25,905 nt of DNA, from the IMG/VR virus record IMGVR_UViG_2711768032_000005; one strand, given 5' to 3'. Positions 583 through 25,905 of this stretch are shown piece by piece. The stretch is from a virus. Lineage: Duplodnaviria; Heunggongvirae; Uroviricota; Caudoviricetes. Numbering within the stretch: the first letter of the stretch is position 1; each line of letters begins with the position of its first letter. The notes below the pieces were generated by a model. That model made no database searches. It was not told the DNA's origin and saw nothing but the letters and a program-made list of their open reading frames with translations. Both the position numbers and the translations under genes were made by a program.

Positions 583-1596
583 TTACTCTACTGTGGACAC
601 TGTGTGGACACTCTCGGCCTCAGTACCACCTCTTAGCGGATTAAGAGAAATGGCGTCCTGAAGGTACTCTGGCGCAAAATGAGCGTAAACCATAGTTTGC
701 TCAATCCGCGTGTGACCTAGTATCCGTTGTAGCGTGATAATACTTCCTCCATTAATCATGAAATGAGTGGCAAAGCTGTGCCTTAGTGCATGTGTGGCTT
801 GCCCCATTGGCAAATCCGGTTTTATTGCTTTCATTGTTCGTCTGAAGCGAGGGTAATCAGCATCAGGGAATAAAAAACCTCGTTTGTTATCCGCGATCAT
901 TTTGGCAACAGCCTCTGAGATCGGGACGGTGCGTGGTTTGTTTGTTTTCGTTTTAACAAACGTGACGCGGTTATGGATGATATTTTCTGCTTTCAAACGA
1001 GCTGCTTCTCCCCAACGTGCTCCAGTACTCAGGCAAAGAATCGCAATCTTTTTGTTGTCGCCGTCAAGAGCAGCAAGCAGTAAGGCAATTTCTTCCTGTG
1101 TGAGATAGCCTGTGTCTGGTTTTTCCTCCTTAAGCCTTTTTGTCCCTCTGATAGGGTGCTCACCAAAGAATAACTCCGCTTCAATCAGGGCTGTAAACAT
1201 GCCGCTAATACATGTTAAATCACGATTGATACTCGAAGGTTTAATACCCTGACTTCTTCGGGTGGCGCAGTACTGGCTGATAAGCGATTTCGTAATTTGA
1301 AATGCGCATGGGTCATTCGTTATTTTTGTGAAGATTTCAATTTTTCCAAGATTAGATTTCCCATGCTCTTCGTGTTTACCCTTTAAATCCCACCAGATCT
1401 GTGTCAGCTCTGACAGACGTCGCTTGTCTGTTGGTTTTGATAGCCATTCTTTATTGTGGTGGTTGTACAACGTGTATTTCTCGAAAGCGACAGCTTCGCT
1501 TTTCTTATCAAACTTCCTACGGATGCGTTTTCCATTACGTCCAGTAGGGCGGATGTCCACTTCATATCGACCATCATCGAGTTTTTTGATTGCCAT
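583..1596 (-). CDS. int: tyrosine integrase, P2 Int-like
   Basis: 337 aa, same length as P2 Int as recalled; C-terminal catalytic region HALRHSFATH...LGH...VYAHF with terminal Tyr; ATG at 1596; adjacent to att core. Confidence 0.9.
   Translation of the reverse strand: MAIKKLDDGRYEVDIRPTGRNGKRIRRKFDKKSEAVAFEKYTLYNHHNKEWLSKPTDKRRLSELTQIWWDLKGKHEEHGKSNLGKIEIFTKITNDPCAFQITKSLISQYCATRRSQGIKPSSINRDLTCISGMFTALIEAELFFGEHPIRGTKRLKEEKPDTGYLTQEEIALLLAALDGDNKKIAILCLSTGARWGEAARLKAENIIHNRVTFVKTKTNKPRTVPISEAVAKMIADNKRGFLFPDADYPRFRRTMKAIKPDLPMGQATHALRHSFATHFMINGGSIITLQRILGHTRIEQTMVYAHFAPEYLQDAISLNPLRGGTEAESVHTVSTVE
592..610. promoter_or_regulatory. two direct repeats TGTGGACA 11 bp apart, candidate integrase arm-type binding sites
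   Basis: TGTGGACA at 592-599 and 603-610, overlapping the 3' end of int. Matches my recollection of the P2 Int arm-site consensus; not verified. Confidence 0.4.
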
Positions 1597-1711: not shown

Positions 1712-2011
1712 TTAACCAGTCTTTTGACCGGAGTGGGGCGACGTTGTTTCGTTTTGCCCAAAGTGTGCGAGAGCGGGCGCAATTTGCCCGGACTCAGGAG
1801 CGATCTGATTGGTCATGAACCATAAAGTGTATTTGGTGAATTGTGGGGTCTGCAGGATGTTCATCATGACATCTGTTGGAGGTGTTGAACGACCACTTTC
1901 ATAGTAACTCAGCGTGCCATACGGAACCCCTGTTAAATCAGCAAGTTGTTGTCTGCTCAAATACTCTGATTTTCGCATTAAGACTATCTTCTCGCTTATC
2001 GTGTTTGACAT
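1712..2011 (-). CDS. C: immunity repressor, P2 C-like
   Basis: 99 aa, same length as P2 C as recalled; helix-turn-helix segment SRQQLADLTGVPYGTLSYYESG; transcribed toward int, divergent from cox. Confidence 0.8.
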   Translation of the reverse strand: MSNTISEKIVLMRKSEYLSRQQLADLTGVPYGTLSYYESGRSTPPTDVMMNILQTPQFTKYTLWFMTNQIAPESGQIAPALAHFGQNETTSPHSGQKTG

Positions 2012-2014
2012 GGT

Positions 2015-2044
2015 GTTTAGATCTCAATAGTATTTAGTTTAGAT
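2015..2044. promoter_or_regulatory. candidate operator: direct repeats GTTTAGAT spaced 22 bp, in the C/cox divergent promoter region
   Basis: GTTTAGAT at 2015-2022 and 2037-2044, with a third related copy TGTTTAGT at 2051-2058. Direct-repeat operators flanking the early promoter fit what I recall of P2 C binding. Confidence 0.4.
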
Positions 2045-2125: not shown

Positions 2126-2401
2126 ATGAGCAAGCAAGTAACACTCATGACTGATGCGATTCCTTATCAGGAGTTCGCAAAACTAATAGGAAAATCGACA
2201 GGAGCGGTTCGTCGGATGATCGATAAAGGAAAGCTGCCTGTAATTGATATGACCGATCCACAATCAGCTTCAGGTCGTGCAGGTGAATATTGGGTATACC
2301 TTCCGGCATGGAATAACGGACTAAAACTGGCTTATGAAAGCCGCCCTAAAGAGATTCGTGACGGCTGGTTGATGTGGTTAGGTCTCGGTGAACCACGTTA
2401 A
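2126..2401 (+). CDS. cox: Cox-like excisionase / early repressor of Pc
   Basis: 91 aa, same length as P2 Cox as recalled; first gene of rightward early operon; GAGG RBS 6 nt upstream of ATG. Confidence 0.75.
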   Translation: MSKQVTLMTDAIPYQEFAKLIGKSTGAVRRMIDKGKLPVIDMTDPQSASGRAGEYWVYLPAWNNGLKLAYESRPKEIRDGWLMWLGLGEPR

Positions 2402-2411
2402 GGAGAACCGT

Positions 2412-2582
2412 ATGAATGAGCCTCGTTGTATTGCTCAGTTACTGCGTAACAAAAGCCCCAGGGCGATTGACTTCACCATCACCCACGGTAAGGGGCGTAA
2501 GGGAATCATTATCCGCACCAAAAAACAGAGTCCGTTAAAAAAGGCTCTGACCTTTCTGAAAAGCCGGAGGGTATGGAAATGA
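2412..2582 (+). CDS. small early protein, hypothetical (P2 orf78 position)
   Basis: ATG at 2412 preceded by AGGAG at 2401-2405; 56 aa, basic; stop overlaps the B start (ATGA). The ORF track's longer form begins at an in-frame upstream codon. Confidence 0.5.
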   Translation: MNEPRCIAQLLRNKSPRAIDFTITHGKGRKGIIIRTKKQSPLKKALTFLKSRRVWK

Positions 2583-3079
2583 CAGTGATGACGCTCAATC
2601 TCGTTGAAAAACAGCCAGCAGCTATGCGCCGGATAATTGGCAAGCATCTTGCCGTCCCTCGCTGGCAGGATACATGTGATTATTATAATCAGATGATGGA
2701 GCGCGAACGGCTAACGGTTTGCTTTCATGCACAGTTAAAACAGCGTCACGCAACGATGCGTTTTGAAGAAATGAACGACGTCGAACGTGAACGACTGGTT
2801 TGTGCAATTGATGAATTGCGTGGCGCATTCTCAAAACGCCGTCAGGTTGGTGCAAGTGAGTATGCATATATTAGTTTTTTAACAGTCAGTCAGCGTCGCA
2901 CTTTATTTATGCACGCACGACTGACTGAAAAAGAATTCAACCAGCCATACTGGCGAATTAATGAAGAATCATGTTACTGGCGTGATGCTTTGTTCCGTGC
3001 ATTACGTGAATTATTCAGCCTGTTTGAGTATGCACCGACAATTCTGACGTCGGTAAAACCAGAGCAATATCTGCATTAA
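2579..3079 (+). CDS. B: replication protein B-like
   Basis: 166 aa from ATG 2579, same length as P2 B as recalled; GGAGG 8 nt upstream; ATGA overlap with the preceding ORF. Alternative start ATG 2573. Confidence 0.65.
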   Translation: MTVMTLNLVEKQPAAMRRIIGKHLAVPRWQDTCDYYNQMMERERLTVCFHAQLKQRHATMRFEEMNDVERERLVCAIDELRGAFSKRRQVGASEYAYISFLTVSQRRTLFMHARLTEKEFNQPYWRINEESCYWRDALFRALRELFSLFEYAPTILTSVKPEQYLH

Positions 3080-3142
3080 ATAATTAACCAGAGTTTTTAA
3101 CGCACTTAATCGTGCGGGGCTTCTTTTTGCCTGGAGAAAGTC

Positions 3143-3367
3143 ATGCATACAGTTTCTGAAAATCAGTGCGGTATATACGCATTACTGCTGCAACAGGCCA
3201 GAACCGAAGCACAGGCCGACGCTGCGACGCGCTTTTCTTCTCATCTTGACGCCATGATTCGCCACATCACAAAGGCGGAGTTATCCCGCGTGGAGATAGT
3301 CGAGCTGCTAAGTCAGGAGTCGGAAAAATTTCACAATATCGGATTGTCTCGCGGGAAGGTGCTTTGA
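3143..3367 (+). CDS. hypothetical early protein
   Basis: 74-aa ORF with GGAGAAAG RBS; P2 early-region synteny. Confidence 0.5.
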
Positions 3368-3669
3368 TGTCCTGTTCTCATTCAGTTGTATTACTGAATA
3401 ACGCCTTAAAAATCGCCGTTATGAAAAATGGTGATTTGTCTCTTATTCAACTTTGTCTTGATAAAGAAAAACGCGACATAACTGAATCTGTTATCGCGAT
3501 TTATCAGAATGAATTAAACCTCCTGTCTGATGTGGTCAATTTACTTGTTAAACGCGCTGTATTCCACAAGCAAATTTCATCCGTGGATGAGCTGACAAAA
3601 TTAACGACAGAAATCGCCAGCTATTGCGCTGATGAATTCAAGAAACTGAACGATAAAAGGAGCTGGTAA
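3367..3669 (+). CDS. hypothetical early protein
   Basis: 100 aa from ATG 3367 (track start 3364 is TTG); TGATG overlap with the upstream ORF. Confidence 0.5.
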   Translation: MSCSHSVVLLNNALKIAVMKNGDLSLIQLCLDKEKRDITESVIAIYQNELNLLSDVVNLLVKRAVFHKQISSVDELTKLTTEIASYCADEFKKLNDKRSW

Positions 3670-3893
3670 TGCCGGACAACGTAGATTTTATTCAGGAACA
3701 ACAGGCTGAATTACTGGAGCGCCAGATTAACGCGGCAAGGGTAAAACATTGCGGTGTTTCTTCGCTGGTTTGCGAAGAGTGTGATGCGCCAATACCTGCT
3801 GCCCGTCGTGCGGCTTATCCGTCAGCCACGCGTTGTGTTTCCTGTCAGTCAGTCTTTGAAGCAAAAAACAAACATTACCGGAGAACGGCATGA
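3669..3893 (+). CDS. TraR/DksA-like C4 zinc-finger protein
   Basis: 74 aa; CEEC-(x17)-CVSC motif typical of the phage TraR/DksA zinc-finger family; AAGGAG RBS. Confidence 0.6.
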   Translation: MPDNVDFIQEQQAELLERQINAARVKHCGVSSLVCEECDAPIPAARRAAYPSATRCVSCQSVFEAKNKHYRRTA

Positions 3894-4165
3894 GTATTCG
3901 TATTGAAATTGGCGAACGTTATGTCGTTACCAGTGACAGCTTTCAGTTTATTCTCCACGAGAAAAAGAGGGCTGAAAGCGGTAAAAACGCCGGTCAGGAA
4001 TGGCTGGCGGTAGTTGGTTATTACCCGAAATTAAGCCAGCTCGTTTCCGGCATGATGCATCACGATATTCTGACCGGAAGCGCAAAGTCTTTTGCTGATT
4101 TAAACGCGCAGGTTGAGCAACTCAGCAAGCGTTGTTCAGAGGCTTTTGGCTCACATGGCCGTTAA
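3890..4165 (+). CDS. hypothetical early protein
   Basis: 91-aa ORF, GGAGAA RBS, ATGA overlap with the upstream ORF. Confidence 0.5.
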   Translation: MSIRIEIGERYVVTSDSFQFILHEKKRAESGKNAGQEWLAVVGYYPKLSQLVSGMMHHDILTGSAKSFADLNAQVEQLSKRCSEAFGSHGR

Positions 4166-6428
4166 AGCCTCCGGGCATTTTGTCCCTCCGTCAGCATTTG
4201 CCGCAGGCACCGGTAAGACGTTTACCGGTGCTTATGCATGGAACGCGCCACGCGAGGCCGTCGGGCGCGAAAGACCCCTTACACGTGACGAGATGCGTCA
4301 GGTGCAAGGTGTTTTATCCACGATTAACCGCCTGCCTTACTTTTTGCGCTCGCTGTTTACTTCACGCTATGACTACATCCGGCGCAATAAAAGCCCGGTG
4401 CACGGGTTTTATTTCCTCACATCCACTTTTCAGCGTCGTTTATGGCCGCGCATTGAGCGCGTGAATCAGCGCCATGAAATGAACACCGACGCGTCGTTGC
4501 TGTTTCTGGCAGAGCGCGACCAGTATGCGCGCCTGCCGGGGATGAATGACAAGGAGCTGAAAAAGTTTGCCGCCCGTATCTCATCACAGCTTTTCATGAT
4601 GTATGAGGAACTCTGCGATGCCTGGGTGGATGCGCATGGCGAGAAAGAATCGCTGTTTACGGATGAGGCGCAGGCTCACCTCTATGGTCATGTTGCTGGC
4701 GCTGCACGTGCTTTCAATATTTCCCCTCTCTACTGGAAAAAATACCGTAAAGGACAGATGACCACGAGGCAGGCATATTCTGCCATTGCCCGCCTGTTTA
4801 ACGATGAGTGGTGGACTCATCAGCTTAAAGGCCAGCGTATGCGCTGGCATGAGGCGTTACTGATTGCTGTCGGGGAGGTGAATAAAGACCGTTCTCCTTA
4901 TGCCAGTAAACATGCCATTCGTGATGTGCGTGCGCGCCGCCAGGCAAATCTGGAGTTTCTTAAATCGTGTGACCTTGAGAACAGGGAAACCGGCGAGCGC
5001 ATCGACCTTATCAGTAAGGTGATGGGCAGTATTTCTAATCCTGAAATTCGCCGGATGGAGCTGATGAACACCATTGCCGGTATTGAGCGTTACGCCGCCG
5101 CAGAGGGTGATGTGGGGATGTTTATCACGCTAACCGCGCCGTCAAAGTATCACCCGACACGTCAGGTCGGAAAAGGCGAAAGTAAAACCGTGCAGCTTAA
5201 TCACGGCTGGAACGATGAGGCATTTAATCCAAAGGATGCGCAGCGTTATCTCTGCCGTATCTGGAGCCTGATGCGCACGGCATTCAAGGATAATGATTTA
5301 CAGGTCTACGGTTTGCGTGTCGTCGAGCCACACCACGACGGAACGCCGCACTGGCATATGATGCTTTTTTGTAATCCACGCCAGCGTAACCAGATTATCG
5401 AAATCATGCGTCGCTACGCGCTCAAAGAGGATGGCGACGAAAGAGGAGCCGCGCGAAACCGTTTTCAGGCAAAACACCTTAACCGGGGCGGTGCTGCGGG
5501 ATATATCGCGAAATACATTTCAAAAAACATCGACGGCTATGCACTGGATGGTCAGCTCGATAACGATACCGGCAGACCGCTGAAAGACACTGCGGCGGCT
5601 GTTACCGCATGGGCGTCAACGTGGCGCATCCCGCAATTTAAAACGGTTGGACTGCCGACAATGGGGGCTTACCGTGAACTACGCAAATTGCCTCGCGGCG
5701 TCAGTATTGCTGATGAGTTTGACGAACGCGTCGAGGCTGCTCGCGCCGCCGCAGACAGTGGCGATTTTGCGCTGTATATCAGCACGCAGGGTGGGGCAAA
5801 TGTTCCGCGCGATTGTCAGACTGTCAGGGTTGCCCGTAGTCCGTCGGATGACGTTAACGAGTACGAGGAAGAAGTCGAGAGAGTGGTCGGCATTTACGCG
5901 CCGCATCTCGGCGCGCGTCATATTCATATCACCAGAACGACGGACTGGCGCATTGTGCCGAAAGTTCCGGTCGTTGAGCCTTTGACTTTAAAAAGCGGCA
6001 TCGCCGCGCCTCGGAGTCCTGTCAATAACTGTGGAAAGCTCACCGGTGGTGATACTTCGTTACCGGCTCCCACACCTTCTGAGCACGCCGCAGCCGTGCT
6101 AAATCTGGTTGATGACGGTGTTATCGAATGGAATGACCCGGAGGTCGTGAGGACGCTCAGGGGGGCATTAAAACACGGTCTGAGAAGACCAAACCGTCAG
6201 CAAAGAAACGGAAGCCCGTTAAAACCACATGAAATAGCACCGTCGGCCAGACTGACTCGGTCGGAACGATTGCAAATTACCCGTATCCGCGTTGACCTCG
6301 CTCAGAACGGTATCAGGCCGCAACGATGGGAGCTTGAGGCGCTGGCGCGTGGCGCGACCGTAAATTATGACGGGAAAAAATTCACGTATCCGATTGCTGA
6401 TGAGTGGCCGGAGTTTTCCGCAAACTAA
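4155..6428 (+). CDS. A: replication initiation protein A-like (rolling-circle nicking endonuclease)
   Basis: 757 aa from ATG 4155 (track ORF starts at TTG 4113; P2 A is about 761 aa as recalled). HUH-like HWHMMLF motif and paired tyrosines in GYIAKYISKNIDGY. Confidence 0.8.
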   Translation: MAVKASGHFVPPSAFAAGTGKTFTGAYAWNAPREAVGRERPLTRDEMRQVQGVLSTINRLPYFLRSLFTSRYDYIRRNKSPVHGFYFLTSTFQRRLWPRIERVNQRHEMNTDASLLFLAERDQYARLPGMNDKELKKFAARISSQLFMMYEELCDAWVDAHGEKESLFTDEAQAHLYGHVAGAARAFNISPLYWKKYRKGQMTTRQAYSAIARLFNDEWWTHQLKGQRMRWHEALLIAVGEVNKDRSPYASKHAIRDVRARRQANLEFLKSCDLENRETGERIDLISKVMGSISNPEIRRMELMNTIAGIERYAAAEGDVGMFITLTAPSKYHPTRQVGKGESKTVQLNHGWNDEAFNPKDAQRYLCRIWSLMRTAFKDNDLQVYGLRVVEPHHDGTPHWHMMLFCNPRQRNQIIEIMRRYALKEDGDERGAARNRFQAKHLNRGGAAGYIAKYISKNIDGYALDGQLDNDTGRPLKDTAAAVTAWASTWRIPQFKTVGLPTMGAYRELRKLPRGVSIADEFDERVEAARAAADSGDFALYISTQGGANVPRDCQTVRVARSPSDDVNEYEEEVERVVGIYAPHLGARHIHITRTTDWRIVPKVPVVEPLTLKSGIAAPRSPVNNCGKLTGGDTSLPAPTPSEHAAAVLNLVDDGVIEWNDPEVVRTLRGALKHGLRRPNRQQRNGSPLKPHEIAPSARLTRSERLQITRIRVDLAQNGIRPQRWELEALARGATVNYDGKKFTYPIADEWPEFSAN

Positions 6429-6600
6429 TAATGATGTTTGACAAAGAGTAATAAAGGGATGTTGACAAGGCTAAAATTTTTACCTGTCAGTATAGTTAGA
6501 GCAGTATAGTTCTGAGGAGTTCGAATATAACTAATGGGGCACTCTTTAATATGTGATTAACACGGTTATATTAAAATTAAATGCTCATAGGAATAAAATG

Positions 6601-6624
6601 AGGGCAAGAGGTTATTCTTGCCCT
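6601..6624. terminator. bidirectional intrinsic terminator between convergent gene A and the SIR2-like gene
   Basis: Perfect 9-bp stem AGGGCAAGA / TCTTGCCCT with 6-nt loop; U-rich tracts on both strands (TGATTTATT on plus, CATTTTATTC on minus); directly downstream of the SIR2-like stop at 6632. Confidence 0.6.
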
Positions 6625-6631
6625 TGATTTA

Positions 6632-9226
6632 TTAGGCGGCGATGTTGATGTTATTTTTATATTTTAAGAGGGCGCTTTCTGGAACTGCTGGCCAGGCTGA
6701 GTATCTATAATAGTTCATATAATCTTTCTCTATCAGTCTCTTTAACTGTTTGTTAGCCTGAACTTCATCGTCAAGTAAAAAGAATGCACACATGGATGTA
6801 GCCCCTTTTGAATTATTATGTGCTAAAACTGAATTTATCTCATTCTTTTTAATGTCTTGTCTTTGTTTTTTCTTGGCAACTTCCCTATTGATTATTAAAA
6901 CATCTTTCTCTCTGTAATCTTTGATTTTTTCAAGATTTTCATTAGTTATTTTAATTGTTTCTTTATAGTTTCCTGCAAGAAGGTTAGTATAAGATTTTCC
7001 TAAGATATAATCACTAAACCCGTAACCTTTCTCATAAGCTTCATCAAGAAGAATTATCGCTTTTTCATAATCGCCGTTTAAAGATGCAATATCAGATTTT
7101 AATTTCAAAATGGTTATTTCTGATTTATTTCTTGGCAGGCTGTCAATAAACTCCTCTGCCAATTTGATGTTGTTTTTATCAATTAGCAATATGTCTATAA
7201 TACTGTCTGTATGATTATTCTTCCACGGACAATTCATGGCTTCTTTGGCTAATTCAATGCCAGCTTTGATGTCTCTGTTGCAGCCTATCTCATATCGAGC
7301 TTTAAATATAATGAAAGGAGCAATTCTTGCAATGTCGCCCTCTTCTTCATATTTATCAATAAAGTCTTTCATCAAGCCGGGAGTGTTTTCGTCAAAGTCT
7401 GTTTCAAATAAAGATAGATGCAGTTGTGTTAAATATTTTAATATATTTCTCTTTTTATTTTTTGATGATGTTTTGTAAACGTTGGATAATTTATCTATGC
7501 ACAATAATGCCTCTTCTTTTTTTTGCAATGCGCAGGTGAAATCAGTATATAACGACAAATATGTATCGTGAGTAGGGTTAACATCTTTTATTTTATCAAG
7601 TAGTTCTTGTATTGATTTGTTACAATCTTTCTTATCATAGCTTGATTGATGTTTTGTCTTTATCGCGTCATATTTTATTCTCCATGCAATATTATCCAGA
7701 TTACTGCTTTGGAGTAAACTTTTATCAATTAAATCATGTATTTCATCAAAGGTTATTAATTCCTCATCATGATTTTCTAGATGTAGAATAGCAATTCTGC
7801 TTAAATGATTCTTAAGATTTATGCTATATGGGAATTTTTCTAGCAATCCCTTTAGGTAATGTATTTTTTCATTTAGATCTGTGAATATGTTTGTCCTTGA
7901 TAGGGCGTAATTTATATTAAATTCATCAAGAGCTATGAGTTTATCACTAATTTCTAATGCTGACTTTGTGTCTTTTTGTTCTTCTTTTATTTCAATTAGC
8001 CTACGTAGATATTTAGATTTTATATTGTCACTATCAGCGTTATTGATTAAATCATTCAGTTTTGACTCTGCGTTTGAATAATTTTTATTTCTAATGAGGT
8101 TGTCAATGTATAACAAATTCTTAAAATCTTCTTCGGGAATTTTTTGTTCGTCTAAATCACTTTGGGATAGCTCGTTTATTAATGATGATATGTCATGTGT
8201 TAGAGTGTGTTTTTTTAATTTTGAGAGGTCAGATTTGATAATGTTATTTTTAGATAAGCTGTACTCATCTGTTATAAAGTTTTGAATCATCATCTCTCTT
8301 TTTGTGGATTTTTGATTCCCTCCAAAAGAGAGTGTGCAGCCTAATTCAAGGGCTAGTTCTGCCATTAATTCATCAAAGCCTTCTATTTCTACCCAATAAA
8401 CTTTCTCTTGACCTAGAAGCCTAATTAGTTCTGGTGGGATGGCGTCATTTTGTCTTACGCACCAATATACCCCATTCCGTAGGTAATCGTCCTGTTTTAA
8501 TAAATGTTTTAAAACATCCATGATAGAGCTGTCATTGCCAGCATAACCAACAAAAATAACCCCGTATTCTTTAGTGAATTCAGTTAGTTTTTCACGAGTG
8601 TTACCTTCTAATGACTCGGTTTCTTTTAAAGAGCTTTTTATGCTATCAAATAGATAATCACCATGTAATTTTATTATTTTTGGTCTTGAAGAAGTAATTG
8701 AGACGCCTTTAATTGATGAGTCATGTGCGCATAATAATGGTCTGTCAGAAGAAAATTGATAAAATGCTTCATTTATTAAATCGTCAAAATTTGTTGTGAA
8801 GACAGTATCAAAAAACTTTGATTCAAATAGTTCAACGAGATAAGCATATCCAATTGAAGGTAATTTTTTGTCTACTTGAAGCTCAACAAATCTTCTGCGT
8901 TGAGATGGGAGATCAAATTTCTTTTCAAAAAGAGAGGAGTATTCATTGTTTGGGTCGTACCAGACTGGATGGTTTTTGGATAGCCATTTTTTAGCTTCTT
9001 CGGCATCGATATATTCTTTATTGGATAGTCTTGTGTATATCTCTTCTCTCCATGTTGCAACTAACTCTTGACCAGTTTTTATTCCTGATGTAACGGATGC
9101 ACCAGCACCAAGAAAGAGTGAATAGTTAGGTGATGTACCTGATTTGATTTTTATATAATCTGCTAAATCTTTAACTGTTCTTTTTTTGGCAACCAGTTGT
9201 TCCTTGGTAGTATCACGATCAGACAT
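6632..9226 (-). CDS. SIR2-like (sirtuin-type NADase) domain protein with long helical C-terminal region; candidate anti-phage defence effector
   Basis: 864 aa; ATG at 9226 with strong GGAGGG RBS. N-terminal 300 aa carry SIR2-type motifs FLGAGAS (37-44), TTNFD (Asn146, codon 8789-8791), KLHGD (His188, codon 8663-8665), GYAGND; Asn-His spacing of 42 is similar to ThsA and DSR2. AT-rich, unlike flanking phage genes. Confidence 0.8.
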   Translation of the reverse strand: MSDRDTTKEQLVAKKRTVKDLADYIKIKSGTSPNYSLFLGAGASVTSGIKTGQELVATWREEIYTRLSNKEYIDAEEAKKWLSKNHPVWYDPNNEYSSLFEKKFDLPSQRRRFVELQVDKKLPSIGYAYLVELFESKFFDTVFTTNFDDLINEAFYQFSSDRPLLCAHDSSIKGVSITSSRPKIIKLHGDYLFDSIKSSLKETESLEGNTREKLTEFTKEYGVIFVGYAGNDSSIMDVLKHLLKQDDYLRNGVYWCVRQNDAIPPELIRLLGQEKVYWVEIEGFDELMAELALELGCTLSFGGNQKSTKREMMIQNFITDEYSLSKNNIIKSDLSKLKKHTLTHDISSLINELSQSDLDEQKIPEEDFKNLLYIDNLIRNKNYSNAESKLNDLINNADSDNIKSKYLRRLIEIKEEQKDTKSALEISDKLIALDEFNINYALSRTNIFTDLNEKIHYLKGLLEKFPYSINLKNHLSRIAILHLENHDEELITFDEIHDLIDKSLLQSSNLDNIAWRIKYDAIKTKHQSSYDKKDCNKSIQELLDKIKDVNPTHDTYLSLYTDFTCALQKKEEALLCIDKLSNVYKTSSKNKKRNILKYLTQLHLSLFETDFDENTPGLMKDFIDKYEEEGDIARIAPFIIFKARYEIGCNRDIKAGIELAKEAMNCPWKNNHTDSIIDILLIDKNNIKLAEEFIDSLPRNKSEITILKLKSDIASLNGDYEKAIILLDEAYEKGYGFSDYILGKSYTNLLAGNYKETIKITNENLEKIKDYREKDVLIINREVAKKKQRQDIKKNEINSVLAHNNSKGATSMCAFFLLDDEVQANKQLKRLIEKDYMNYYRYSAWPAVPESALLKYKNNINIAA

Positions 9227-21390: not shown

Positions 21391-23601
21391 ATGAGCACAA
21401 AATTCAGAACCGTTATCACCACTGCCGGTGCAGCAAAGCTGGCAGCGGCAACCGCACCGGGAGGGCGGAAGGTCAACATTACCACGATGGCCGTCGGGGA
21501 TGGCGGTGGTAAATTGCCTGTCCCGGATGCCGGACAGACCGGGCTTATCCATGAAGTCTGGCGACATGCGCTGAACAAAATCAGCCAGGACAAACGAAAC
21601 AGTAATTATATTATCGCAGAGCTGGTTATTCCGCCGGAGGTGGGCGGTTTCTGGATGCGTGAGCTTGGCCTGTACGATGATGCGGGAACGTTAATTGCTG
21701 TGGCGAACATGGCTGAAAGTTATAAGCCTGCCCTTGCCGAAGGCTCAGGGCGTTCGCAGACCTGCCGCATGGTCATCATCGTCAGCAGTGTGGCCTCAGT
21801 GGCGCTGACCATTGACACCACAACGGTGATGGCAACGCAGGATTACGTTGATGACAAAATTGCAGAGCACGAACAGTCACGACGTCACCCGGACGCCTCG
21901 CTGACCGCAAAAGGTTTTACTCAGCTAAGCAGCGCGACCAACAGCACGTCTGAAACACTGGCCGCAACGCCGAAAGCGGTAAAGGCCGCATATGACCTTG
22001 CTAACGGGAAATATACTGCACAGGATGCCACTACAGCGCGAAAAGGCCTTGTTCAGCTCAGTAGTGCGACTAACAGCACGTCTGAAACGCTCGCCGCAAC
22101 GCCGAAAGCGGTAAAGGCCGCATATGACCTTGCTAACGGGAAATACACTGCACAGGACGCCACCACAGCGCGAAAAGGTCTTGTCCAGCTCAGTAGCGCC
22201 ACCAACAGCGATTCTGAAACGCTTGCGGCAACGCCAAAGGCGGTAAAGGCCGCGTATGACCTTGCTAACGGGAAATACACTGCACAGGATGCCACCACGG
22301 CGCGAAAAGGGCTTGTCCAGCTCAGTAGCGCCACCAACAGTGATTCTGAAACGCTGGCCGCAACACCAAAAGCGGTGAGGTCTGCCTATGACAATGCTGA
22401 AAAACGTCTTCAGAAAGATCAGAACGGTGCGGATATTCCGGGAAAGGATACCTTCACGAAAAATATCGGTGCCTGTCGTGCTTATAGCGGCGCTTTGAGC
22501 ACTGAAGCCGGAAACTGGACAACCGCTCAGTTTATTGACTGGCTAGAGTCTCAGGGAGCCTTTAATCATCCTTACTGGATGTGCAAGTGTTCCTGGTCAT
22601 ATGGTAATAACAAAATTATTACCGATACTGACTGTGGGACTATTCATCTTGCAGGTTGCGTGATTGAGGTTATGGGCGTTAAAGCAGCAATGACCATTCG
22701 TGTGACCACTCCGAGTACATCAAGCGGTGGTGGTACCACCAGTGCGCAATTCACGTATATCAATCACGGAGCTGATTATGCGCCGGGCTGGCGACGCGAC
22801 TACAATACGAAAAATAAGCAACCGGCTTTTGCATTAGGGAAAACAGGAAATACGGTTGCAAATAATAAAGCGGTAGGATGGAACTGGGACAGTGGTGCTT
22901 ATTGTGCACAGGATGGCGGAGCATCAAAAATGGTGTTGCATTTTTACACGGGTGAGGGAAGTTGTCCGGCAATGCAGTTTCTTGTGGATTATAAAAACAG
23001 GGGGATTTTTTACAGGTCGGCACGTGATGGGTATGGATTTGAGGCTGACTGGTCAGAGTTTTATACCACATCACGAAAGCCAACACCTGCGGATATTCTT
23101 GCTCTGGCATTATCAGGCGGAAGCATGTCAGGCAGCATAAAATTTATCAATGATGCCTTCCTGATTTGGGAAAGAAACACTGACTGGGCGAAAATTGGAT
23201 TTAAAAATGATTCAGATGCTGATTCTGACTCATACATGTGGTTTGAAACTGGTGATAATGGCAATGAATATTTTAAATGGCGCATCAGGTCTGGCAGCAC
23301 AACAAAAGATCTGATGACGCTTAAGTCTGATGCACTACGGGTTACCGGGCAGGTGATACCATCAAATTTCAGCAATTTTGACTCCCGCTATGTCCGGGAT
23401 ATCCGACTTGGTGGTGCCGCCACATACAAACCTGCGAACAATGGCATGACATGGACACATCAGGCACCGTCCGGGTGTGTATATACCGGCATTATTGTTC
23501 AGGATACCGGCTCAAACTCTGCCGATAACATTGGTGGCGTATATTACAGACCGGTTCAGAAATACATTAACGGGACATGGTACAACGTGGCGCAGGTATA
23601 A
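21391..23601 (+). CDS. H: tail fibre protein H-like, with internal tandem repeats and a divergent middle segment
   Basis: 736 aa; N-terminus MSTKFRTVITTAGAAKLAAA and C-terminal tip QKYINGTWYNVAQV resemble P2 H as recalled (P2 H is shorter, about 669 aa). Confidence 0.85.
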   Translation: MSTKFRTVITTAGAAKLAAATAPGGRKVNITTMAVGDGGGKLPVPDAGQTGLIHEVWRHALNKISQDKRNSNYIIAELVIPPEVGGFWMRELGLYDDAGTLIAVANMAESYKPALAEGSGRSQTCRMVIIVSSVASVALTIDTTTVMATQDYVDDKIAEHEQSRRHPDASLTAKGFTQLSSATNSTSETLAATPKAVKAAYDLANGKYTAQDATTARKGLVQLSSATNSTSETLAATPKAVKAAYDLANGKYTAQDATTARKGLVQLSSATNSDSETLAATPKAVKAAYDLANGKYTAQDATTARKGLVQLSSATNSDSETLAATPKAVRSAYDNAEKRLQKDQNGADIPGKDTFTKNIGACRAYSGALSTEAGNWTTAQFIDWLESQGAFNHPYWMCKCSWSYGNNKIITDTDCGTIHLAGCVIEVMGVKAAMTIRVTTPSTSSGGGTTSAQFTYINHGADYAPGWRRDYNTKNKQPAFALGKTGNTVANNKAVGWNWDSGAYCAQDGGASKMVLHFYTGEGSCPAMQFLVDYKNRGIFYRSARDGYGFEADWSEFYTTSRKPTPADILALALSGGSMSGSIKFINDAFLIWERNTDWAKIGFKNDSDADSDSYMWFETGDNGNEYFKWRIRSGSTTKDLMTLKSDALRVTGQVIPSNFSNFDSRYVRDIRLGGAATYKPANNGMTWTHQAPSGCVYTGIIVQDTGSNSADNIGGVYYRPVQKYINGTWYNVAQV
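21910..22396 (+). repeat. four tandem 132-bp (44-aa) in-frame repeats inside the tail fibre gene
   Basis: Units start at 21910, 22042, 22174, 22306. Protein unit KGLVQLSSATNS(T/D)SETLAATPKAVKAAYDLANGKYTAQDATTAR; by eye copies 2 and 3 differ at about 13 of 132 nt, mostly synonymous; the fourth copy diverges in its last third. Confidence 0.85.
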
Positions 23602-23699: not shown

Positions 23700-24352
23700 T
23701 CACTGATCTCCTTCGGTCAACGGAGATTGTATTTTCCGCATTGATTCTCCTTTAAGTTCGATCTTGATACTGCCATGAACCAGTCGATCTAGGATGGCAT
23801 CCGCATGTGTGGAGTCTCCGATCATTTTGTACCAGTTTTCCACCGGCAACTGGCTCACTACGATGATTGAGCCTCGTTGGTACATCAGATCCACTATTTC
23901 CAGCAGGTCGCTACATGCCCCTGATAGCACTGTTCCATCAGCGCTTTAAGGCGATAATAGTAGACCTTGTATCCCTGTCGGCAGGCATTATGACCAAGTG
24001 CACATGCCAGGAACGTTTTACCGCTGCCGGTGGCCCCGGTCAGTAAAATATTTTGTTTCAGGGTTAACCAGTTTCCCTGACTGAGTGAACGGATGAGGGC
24101 CCTGTCCAGCCCTCTATTGTTACGATAATCCAGCTTTGATAACTCAGCATTAAGTCTGAACCGTGCATGTTTGATCAGACGCTCTGCCTTCCTGTTTTCA
24201 CGGCAGGTTAGTTCTTCTGCTGTCAGTAATGACAGGCGTTCTTCGAAGCCCAGCTCCTGGTATGTGCCCGGTTGAGCAAGTTGCTTTTTAAGCGCATCAC
24301 GGAAGCCGGTGAGTTTAAGTGCGGTCAGTTGTTCGTAAAGATGATTCATCAT
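23700..24352 (-). pseudogene. istB: istB (IS21 helper ATPase), disrupted
   Basis: Two fragments in different frames (23894..24352 with Walker A; 23700..23930 with C-terminal RGSIIVVSQLP...ILDRLVHGS...KGESMR). Frames overlap around 23930-23945 and the segment expected to hold Walker B (hhhhDE) appears missing. Confidence 0.65.
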
Positions 24353-24363
24353 TGGATCCCGTA

Positions 24364-25905
24364 TCAGTGGTAATACTCACTGCCGCGTACGTTTTCGTGT
24401 TCCATCGTGGATAACAGATCTGGTTTTGGATCCTGAACAGGTTGTTTATCCAGACCTTTTTCCAGGATCGATTTAATACCTGACAGACGCCATACCTTTG
24501 TTTTCAGAGCTCTTGCACATGCTGCATTAAGTCTGGCTTTACTGTATTTTTTATGAAGGTTCAGGAGTCCAAGGCAGAAGCGATAGCTTTGTTCCGGATG
24601 TGGACGAGAGTTCAGTATATGAAGCACATAACTATGAGTTTCACTGCCTATGTGCCCCGCCCATTCCAGAAGACGCTCTGGCGTCCAGGTGGCATGCTGT
24701 CGATGAGCTTCAGGCATGTGCTCGTTGCGGGTACTGTAGCCATAAGTACGCTTGCGCGGGTGCACAGCAACCTCCTGCCCCTGATTGAAGAGTCTTACCA
24801 GTTCTCCGGAGATCCATGCTTCCAGTTGCTGGCCTAACAGCGAACATGGAACCGAGTAGTAATGTTTGTCGATTTCCACGTGGTAATCGGCATGAACTCT
24901 GACTTTCTTCACCAGGGTGTAACTGTAACTGGCTTCAGGAAGAGGCTTCAGTGCGGGTTTATCAAGCTGGATGAAGAGTTCTGCACGTGAATAACCCAAC
25001 TTCTGCATTATTTTGTTATTCAGTCTTTCCAGCAACTCCCGAATGCGCTGATTAAGCGATGCAAGGCTGTAGAAGATCTCATGCCTGATTCGGGCCATGA
25101 TCCAGCGTTCAACAACCTGAACGCCAACTTCAGCTTTGGCTTTATCTTTCGGTTTACGTGGCCGCGCAGGCAAAACTGCGACATTATAATGCTCAAGCAT
25201 CTGCTGGTAGGTAGGGTTAACGTCAGGATCATACTTACATGCCCTGGATGTGGCGCTTTTCAGATTGTCCGGAACAACAAGTTCAGGAACGCCACCCAAC
25301 CACTGGAAGCAGCGAACATGACTCATCACCCAGTCTTCAAGCTGCTGAGACCAGGTGGCCTCTGCCCATGTGTAACTTGATGCCCCGAGAACAGCTACGA
25401 TGACCTGAGCAGTTCTTATTTCTCCGGTCTCAGGGTCGGTAACGCCAACGGTAGGTCCACAGTAATCAACGAAAAGTTTTTCGCCAGCTTTATGTACCTG
25501 ACGCATTGATGGTGAAGTGGTTTTGAGCCATTCACGGTACATCCGGCAGTAATGGTTATAGCTGTAAAAACCGCCTGGATTACGCTCACAGTATTCTTCC
25601 CAGAGTAGCTGCAGCGTCACGCATTTATTACGCAGTTCCCGGTGTACTGTAGCCCAGTCAGGCAGAGAGTGCTTCTTCATCTTAACCTGGGTCTGAAGGA
25701 ACGCATGTTTTAGTTTTGTATCATCCCATCCTGTAGGTAAGGGCCACTGCTTTATGCCAAGTTGAGCCGCCCGATTAGCATATCTGGATACAACGGAAGG
25801 GGAGATTGCAAGACTACGACCAATTTGTCGATGGCTGAGTCCAACACCGTATTTAAGCCTAAGAATTTCTTTAAGTTTTCTCATAGAAATTGGAACTGTT
25901 GGCAT
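24364..25905 (-). CDS. istA: IS21-family transposase IstA
   Basis: 513-aa ORF; N-terminal HTH (LSHRQIGRSLAISPSVVSRY); directly upstream of istB. ATG lies at the last three bases of the window, so the true start could be further upstream. Confidence 0.8.
   Translation of the reverse strand: MPTVPISMRKLKEILRLKYGVGLSHRQIGRSLAISPSVVSRYANRAAQLGIKQWPLPTGWDDTKLKHAFLQTQVKMKKHSLPDWATVHRELRNKCVTLQLLWEEYCERNPGGFYSYNHYCRMYREWLKTTSPSMRQVHKAGEKLFVDYCGPTVGVTDPETGEIRTAQVIVAVLGASSYTWAEATWSQQLEDWVMSHVRCFQWLGGVPELVVPDNLKSATSRACKYDPDVNPTYQQMLEHYNVAVLPARPRKPKDKAKAEVGVQVVERWIMARIRHEIFYSLASLNQRIRELLERLNNKIMQKLGYSRAELFIQLDKPALKPLPEASYSYTLVKKVRVHADYHVEIDKHYYSVPCSLLGQQLEAWISGELVRLFNQGQEVAVHPRKRTYGYSTRNEHMPEAHRQHATWTPERLLEWAGHIGSETHSYVLHILNSRPHPEQSYRFCLGLLNLHKKYSKARLNAACARALKTKVWRLSGIKSILEKGLDKQPVQDPKPDLLSTMEHENVRGSEYYH

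Follow-up and report, generated by a model that had tools for sequence, protein, structure and literature searches.

The locus under study raises the question of which function can be given to a small cysteine-rich protein encoded between the replication genes of a P2-like prophage, and how much of that function is already known. By the window we mean the whole stretch of DNA that was analysed, 25,905 nucleotides in length. A preliminary description placed a 74-residue TraR/DksA-type zinc-finger protein with a CxxC-x17-CxxC motif at 3669-3893 in the early operon. The protein was described as conserved in P2-like phages, as potentially able to bind RNA polymerase (RNAP) and modulate host transcription, and as being of low novelty. 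A profile search and an overexpression phenotype were suggested as ways of checking this.

The gene and its cysteine motif

The open reading frame listing gives a frame at 3669-3893 on the plus strand with an ATG start and 74 codons followed by a stop. The ATG at 3669 is the first start codon past the in-frame stop ahead of the gene, which is named orf82 here. The translated product of 74 amino acids is MPDNVDFIQEQQAELLERQINAARVKHCGVSSLVCEECDAPIPAARRAAYPSATRCVSCQSVFEAKNKHYRRTA. Cysteines were located by script at positions 28, 35, 38, 56 and 59, and residues 35-59 fit the regular expression 'C..C.{17}C..C' (C35xxC38-x17-C56xxC59). Coordinates, length and motif had therefore all been given correctly in the preliminary description. 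The residues P41-I42-P43 and R46-R47 are also contained within codons 35-59.

Both ends of the gene are coupled to its neighbours. The ATG of orf82 shares bases with the TAA stop codon of the upstream gene orf81 (TAATG), and the TGA stop codon shares bases with the ATG of the downstream gene orf83 (ATGA). Strings of the form CxxC-x(10-25)-CxxC were found only three times in the six-frame translation of the entire window, the one in orf82 included. The features of the early region are collected in Table 1.

Table 1. Position, strand and basis of the features assigned in the early region of the window, in order of coordinates.
Feature	Position	Strand	Basis
int	583-1596	-	early region table
C	1712-2011	-	early region table
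Early promoter Pe, TTGACA-17-TAGTAT	2005..2033	+	consensus scan; 1990-2135 identical to P2
cox, first gene of the early operon	2126..2401	+	ORF; position as in P2; RefSeq 'regulatory phage cox family protein' in near-identical locus
orf78	between cox and B, ends undefined	+	early region table
Gene B	2579..3079	+	P2 synteny; start from RefSeq annotation of near-identical locus
Weak terminator-like hairpin and T-run between B and orf80	3101..3126	+	98% identical to P2 over 81 nt
orf80 ortholog, DUF2732	3143..3367	+	ORF, profile match, P2 synteny
orf81 ortholog, DUF5405	3367..3669	+	ORF, profile match, P2 synteny
Shine-Dalgarno AAGGAG, 6 nt 5' of the orf82 ATG	3657..3662	+	read from sequence
orf82 ortholog, TraR-family C4 zinc-finger, 74 aa	3669..3893	+	ORF, profiles, P2 alignment
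DxxDx(A) motif, codons 3-8 (D-N-V-D-F-I)	3675..3692	+	alignment with F TraR
Predicted zinc-binding motif CxxC-x17-CxxC, codons 35-59	3771..3845	+	pattern script, TraR alignment, homolog alignment
orf83 ortholog, DUF5405	3890..4165	+	ORF, profile match, P2 synteny
Gene A, replication initiator/nickase, last early-operon gene here	4155..6428	+	ORF; RefSeq 'replication endonuclease'

Two further reading frames overlap orf82, one antisense (3727-3891, minus strand, 54 aa) and one in another frame of the same strand (3754-3906, plus strand, 50 aa). Both were rejected as being without support. Two homologs in the database, P0025 and P0096, begin like Orf82 and then switch mid-way into the +1 frame 3754-3906 (...NITGERHEYSY). 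These look like frameshifted gene calls caused by sequencing errors rather than an alternative product. Additionally, the whole window was searched with Rfam at gathering thresholds and with ARAGORN, which gave zero matches.

Family assignment

The suggested profile search returned a match to the DksA/TraR C4 zinc-finger family. Pfam zf-dskA_traR (PF01258) is matched with 44.6 bits, where the cut-off is 24.9. NCBIfam TIGR02419, which is defined as 'phage/conjugal plasmid C-4 type zinc finger protein, TraR family', reaches 78.5 bits (cut-off 59.7), with residues 3-64 aligned to positions 1-64 of the 64 in the profile. The PHROGs profile phrog_54 'DksA-like zinc-finger protein' is matched over the full length. 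Because the corresponding E-values are 1.4e-11 (Pfam), 4.2e-22 (NCBIfam) and 9.8e-33 (PHROGs), the motif of orf82 is regarded as being above chance.

Among the TraR, YbiI and DksA models of NCBIfam, the TraR subfamily model TIGR02419 is the only one passed by the window protein. An ortholog of F-plasmid TraR was rejected (equivalog NF010268, 44.7 bits against a cut-off of 108, identity 39%), and so was YbiI (equivalog NF008243, 46.1 bits against a cut-off of 96). DksA proper was rejected on three models, with 19.7 bits against 115.5 (TIGR02420), 14.6 against 289 (NF008045) and 27.4 against 105 (NF033459), and is also countered by the length of 74 amino acids and the single N-terminal helix of the window protein.

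In a sequence search of the PDB, the top matches were the TraR chains 5w1s_M and 6n57_M of E. coli RNAP complexes, with E-values of about 1e-9 to 6e-10, followed by YbiI and then by DksA. The closest solved relatives are thus TraR chains in complex with RNAP. By profile, the window protein is assigned as a member of the TraR subfamily of DksA/TraR C4 zinc-finger proteins, in agreement with the zinc-finger type that had been named beforehand.

Relation to phage P2 and position in the early operon

P2 Orf82 (AAD03304.1; AF063097 27548-27772) also consists of 74 amino acids, 72 of which are identical in the window protein. At the DNA level 221 of the 225 bases are identical, two of the four differences being synonymous and two coding. 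The coding differences concern residues 30 and 32, which are V30 and S32 in the window protein and A30 and A32 in P2 Orf82. These two positions are found in the loop ahead of the first CxxC, outside the residues reported to be functional.

The gene order of the early region in the window is that of P2. The two orf82 genes have the same neighbours (orf80, orf81, orf83 and A), the same overlaps of start and stop codons and an identical Pe region. On this alignment and synteny the window gene is the ortholog of P2 orf82. The window is a P2 prophage whose neighbour in E. coli is yegR. As had been proposed, orf82 belongs to the early operon. It is carried on the plus strand, 3' of cox and B and 5' of A. 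Gene B serves lagging-strand synthesis in the replication of P2.

Positions 1990-2135 of the window are 100% identical to P2 over 146 nt; the record AF063097 annotates Pe, O1, O2 and Pc within this stretch. The Pe/Pc region with O1 and O2 is identical to that of P2, and the prophage therefore has P2 immunity. The cargo genes of the prophage differ from those of P2 despite this P2-identical switch region.

The hairpin at 3101-3126 is the counterpart of a putative rho-independent terminator annotated in P2. For gene A, the ATG at 4155 was chosen as start codon by analogy with A of P2, giving an overlap of 11 nt with orf83. At the left end, positions 1-318 on the plus strand are the host gene yegR of 105 aa, as annotated by RefSeq at a near-identical locus of E. 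coli 20A24. This puts the integration site of the prophage next to yegR/yegS, and attL is expected between 318 and 583.

Predicted structure and functional residues

A structural model of the window protein was made with AlphaFold2. The input alignment consisted of 12 homologs; P0025 and P0096, as well as the aberrant-looking P0012 and P0014, had been kept out of it. The model has helices at residues 3-25 and 57-73 around the Cys4 region and a mean pLDDT of 75. For TraR, three elements have been described, N (2-27), G (28-57) and C (58-73) (PMC6970531). The predicted layout of window Orf82 matches these three elements, and a coiled-coil hairpin of the DksA type is absent from it.

When the model was compared with the PDB using Foldseek, the best matches were 6n57_M, 5w1s_M, YbiI and DksA. 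Superposition of the model on RNAP-bound TraR gave a TM of about 0.5 and a large rmsd, and the orientation of the helices was not reproduced. With a model of moderate confidence, the predicted fold class is supported by Foldseek but the bound conformation is not.

In the alignment with TraR, residues D3, D6, P41-I42-P43 and R46-R47 of the window protein correspond to D3, D6, P43-I44-P45 and R48-R49. The four cysteines of the motif, P41, I42, P43, R46 and R47 are invariant across the 12 homologs, with identities down to 42%, and D3 and D6 are at least 90% conserved among the homologs. D3 and D6 are required in TraR and in lambda Orf73, and R48 and R49 of TraR contact the rim helices and beta'Si3 (PMC9239242). 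E46 and K50 of TraR, at the beta'Si3 interface, are both aligned with Ala in the window protein.

The window protein and P2 Orf82 share the sequence D3-N-V-D6-F-I8, in which both aspartates are kept and Ile takes the place of Ala at position 8 of the DxxDxA motif. A8 is conserved, yet dispensable for membership of the TraR family, because P2 Orf82 is still active in the absence of A8 (PMC9239242).

Published experiments on P2 Orf82

Gopalkrishnan et al. (mBio 2022, PMC9239242) selected five TraR homologs for study, P2 Orf82 among them. Induced P2 Orf82 complemented a dksA-null strain on minimal medium, and the purified protein inhibited rrnB P1 without ppGpp with an IC50 of 250 nM. It competed with labelled DksA for E. 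coli RNAP at 0.65-1 uM, which is TraR-like, and activated thrABC and argI by about 2-4 fold (PMC9239242). The potency on rrnB P1 is about 5-fold weaker than that of TraR (about 50 nM). According to the same authors, the absence of A8 may contribute to this five-fold lower activity. Furthermore, passages of PMC9239242 describe the proteins of the TraR family as acting without DNA binding, and refer to Liu et al. 1993 for an arrest of growth upon overexpression of P2 Orf82.

The overexpression phenotype suggested as a check is thus present in the literature on P2 Orf82. The proposed binding of RNAP and modulation of host transcription are borne out by experiments on a protein identical at 72 of 74 residues, and by analogy would hold for the window protein. 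Gene, family and biochemical activity are all known, having been described for a protein with two residue differences. The finding is correct but ordinary, because P2 Orf82 has already been shown by experiment to bind RNAP and to lower the activity of rRNA promoters, and the low novelty expected beforehand was a sound judgement.

Comparison with related proteins

F-plasmid TraR (PDB 5W1S, 6N57/6N58) resembles window Orf82 in length (73 and 74 aa), in the three-element layout and in the CxxC-x17-CxxC motif. Further features common to both are D3 and D6, an Arg-Arg pair, a turn with P-I-P and, close to the C terminus, K-H-Y, and the biochemical activities of F TraR are those reported for P2 Orf82. 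Unlike window Orf82, F TraR has A8 (Ile here) and two extra residues ending the N-terminal helix. It comes from a conjugative transfer operon, whereas window Orf82 comes from a phage early operon.

Lambda Orf73 is, like P2 Orf82, a phage homolog of TraR for which passages of PMC9239242 report binding of RNAP and inhibition of rrnB P1. The same passages describe early expression of lambda Orf73, inhibition of rpsT P2 as well, slower host growth and a raised yield of phage. In contrast to P2 Orf82, lambda Orf73 has the full DxxDxA motif, the potency of TraR and little activation of thrABC and argI, compared with about 2-4 fold for P2 Orf82 (PMC9239242). Its gene is placed in the lambda exo-xis region in the relevant part of PMC8614690, whereas P2 orf82 is found in the replication operon. 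A phage phenotype in vivo is established for lambda Orf73 and not for P2 Orf82.

E. coli DksA shares with P2 Orf82 the C4 finger of PF01258, the secondary-channel site of RNAP and similar effects on promoters, and a dksA null is complemented by the phage proteins. DksA differs from window Orf82 in having 151 aa, a two-helix coiled coil and a need for ppGpp for full activity, whereas window Orf82 has 74 aa and one N-terminal helix. E. coli YbiI (PDB 2KGO) is a chromosomal C4 finger protein of the TraR-like type and was third best in both the sequence and the fold searches. With 88 aa it is longer than window Orf82 (74 aa).

Orf61 of phage VP882 (TraR_VP882) is another phage homolog of TraR, with 34% identity to window Orf82 over 70 aa. 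The gene belongs to a repressor-controlled early operon and has an ATGA overlap with the gene upstream, and the product binds RNAP. Unlike P2 Orf82, TraR_VP882 has a partner, QisA, and is countered by QtiQ; the P2 gene is not flanked by a QisA homolog. QisA co-purifies with TraR_VP882 and greatly strengthens its growth arrest (bioRxiv 10.64898/2026.07.27.740977).

Proposed mechanism

The explanation that we favour, taken as a whole and with a probability of roughly 0.9, is that the orf82 product would be a secondary-channel regulator of the P2 Orf82 type, expressed from the early operon and throttling host ribosome synthesis. By analogy with P2 Orf82, we hold with high confidence that the window protein would bind in the secondary channel of host RNAP and shift initiation away from ribosomal promoters without ppGpp. 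Independence of ppGpp would be expected by homology.

Upon prophage induction or infection, the repressor-controlled promoter Pe would transcribe cox, B, orf80, orf81, orf82, orf83 and A. Orf82 would fold into a long N-terminal helix, a small globular Zn(Cys4) domain and a C-terminal helix. As for F-plasmid TraR, the N-terminal helix would be inserted into the secondary channel of RNAP, bringing Asp3 and Asp6 close to the active-site region. The C-terminal helix would rest on the beta lobe-Si1, and the globular domain, with R46 and R47, against the beta' rim helices and beta'Si3. We infer these detailed contacts from the structures of TraR.

Binding of Orf82 would alter the conformation of RNAP. 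Promoters with short-lived open complexes, as those for rRNA and ribosomal proteins, would then be inhibited, and some promoters for amino-acid biosynthesis would be activated, both of them without DNA binding by Orf82 and without ppGpp. The likely effect would be to throttle the growth of the host and its ribosome synthesis at an early stage of the lytic cycle, and thereby to free RNAP and resources for phage replication and late transcription. A gain in phage yield or a takeover of the host by means of P2 Orf82 is what we infer from the in vitro data and from lambda Orf73. No evidence contradicting the assignment of Orf82 to the TraR family was found in this analysis.

Alternative explanations

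Orf82 could instead be mainly a replication helper that removes or destabilises transcription complexes colliding with the rolling-circle replication of P2, a task that host DksA performs at chromosomal forks. This would explain the position of orf82 between the replication genes B and A. TraR homologs are found in replication regions and in regions of the lysis-lysogeny decision (PMC9239242), and DksA promotes DNA replication (VP882 preprint, bioRxiv 10.64898/2026.07.27.740977). The secondary-channel mechanism would be the same as in the explanation favoured above, and the two differ only in which consequence matters. In the sources consulted, Orf82 is the only product of orf80-83 for which a biochemical activity is reported. 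The P2 record AF063097 annotates gpB and gpA, but not orf80-83, as essential replication proteins, and we consider a main role in replication to be unlikely.

It has also been considered whether Orf82 acts in a complex with Orf81, Orf83 or both, the coupled DUF5405 neighbours, which would tune or boost the effect on RNAP. The overlaps of start and stop codons at both ends of orf82 would fit such a partnership, but overlaps of this kind are frequent in phage operons and are weak evidence for a physical contact. Both neighbours belong to one family, passing the DUF5405 profile with 114.9 and 50.8 bits, though BLASTP gives no pairwise alignment between Orf81 and Orf83.

A precedent is given by VP882, where QisA is the product of the gene upstream of the traR homolog, with an ATGA overlap. 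Compared with Orf81 and Orf83, however, QisA has BLASTP E-values of 13 and 6.7, which means no detectable similarity. Purified P2 Orf82 is furthermore active alone in vitro (PMC9239242), and a role of Orf81 or Orf83 in tuning Orf82 is quite improbable. By analogy, P2-type Orf82 might more narrowly be the RNAP-binding subunit of a small Orf81/Orf83 complex, analogous to QisA-TraR and evolutionarily unrelated to it, which we hold to be very doubtful. If a partnership were true, it would give both DUF5405 proteins of P2 a function and would hint that partner proteins are a general feature of phage TraR proteins.

The late genes of P2 use a zinc-finger activator, Ogr. That Orf82, being small, of the Cys4 zinc-finger type and encoded by a P2 genome, is likewise a DNA-binding activator of phage promoters of the Ogr or P4 Delta type, and not a binder of the RNAP channel, can be set aside as extremely improbable: some TraR homologs could regulate phage promoters (PMC9239242), but Ogr_Delta (PF04606) is absent among the Pfam matches to the window protein at E <= 1 while PF01258 passes its cut-off, the cysteine spacing and the flanking residues fit TraR, and P2 Orf82 competes with DksA for its site on RNAP and belongs to a family that, in passages of PMC9239242, acts without binding to DNA.

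Occurrence and database labels

The conservation among P2-like phages that had been stated at the outset is found in the records. In total 75 phage records carry orf82 with a nucleotide identity of 95-99%; a further 91 phage homologs are more distant, with less than 60% protein identity. A near-full-length copy is present in 1598 of the 5426 complete E. coli genomes, several of them being 100% identical; at an identity of at least 95%, the gene is found in about 30% of the complete genomes.

Public labels of the gene in phage records are inconsistent and include 'YbiI', 'dksA: RNA polymerase-binding transcription factor', 'TraR', 'zinc finger protein' and 'hypothetical protein'. The YbiI and DksA labels are unsupported, because the equivalog models score below their cut-offs, and the label 'YbiI' on the P2 gene is a carry-over of naming and not a sign of orthology. 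The proper annotation would be a TraR-family RNA-polymerase-binding regulator, ortholog of P2 Orf82, and not 'YbiI', 'DksA' or 'hypothetical protein'. The neighbouring gene orf81 is called 'replication initiation protein' in some phage records.

Cargo gene and insertion element

Compared with orf82, two features elsewhere in the window are less ordinary: a cargo gene with a SIR2 domain and an insertion of the IS21 family. In P2 gene A is followed by orf91-tin-old, whereas the slot is filled in the window by an 864-aa reading frame (6632-9226, minus strand) with an N-terminal SIR2 domain (PF13289, 56.7 bits), adjoined by a hairpin at 6599-6626. The G+C content is about 30-33% over 7001-9000, compared with about 55% in the P2 late-gene region.

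Only the SIR2 part of the product has matches among PADLOC models, with pAgo-associated SIR2 as the best (E 1e-58), and among 'Sir2 superfamily protein' chains of the PDB; the C-terminal part of about 500 aa gave no matches in the domain, PADLOC and PDB comparisons. The full-length frame is present in 19 of the 5426 complete E. coli genomes and in 0 phage records. The slot filled by the gene is the P2 defence hotspot described by Rousset et al. 2022, in which a figure legend on the systems of this hotspot has SIR2 among its domain labels. As predicted from its domain, the gene is probably a single-gene NAD+-depleting defence cargo.

The IS21-family element, which is a further difference from P2, covers 23700-25905 on the minus strand, directly after the tail-fibre gene H (21391-23601). 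It has an IstA-like transposase frame (24364-25905, minus strand) with rve and Mu-transpos_C_2 domains, the ATG of which takes up the window's final three bases, and the end of the window is probably a contig or assembly break. An IstB-like frame (23894-24352, minus strand) matches only positions 2-135 of the 238 in the profile and may be frameshifted or truncated. In P2 the site of the element is that of the tail-fibre assembly gene G, and the prophage may therefore be defective. Since the prophage may be disrupted by the insertion, orf82 may rarely be active in a productive lytic cycle in its host strain.
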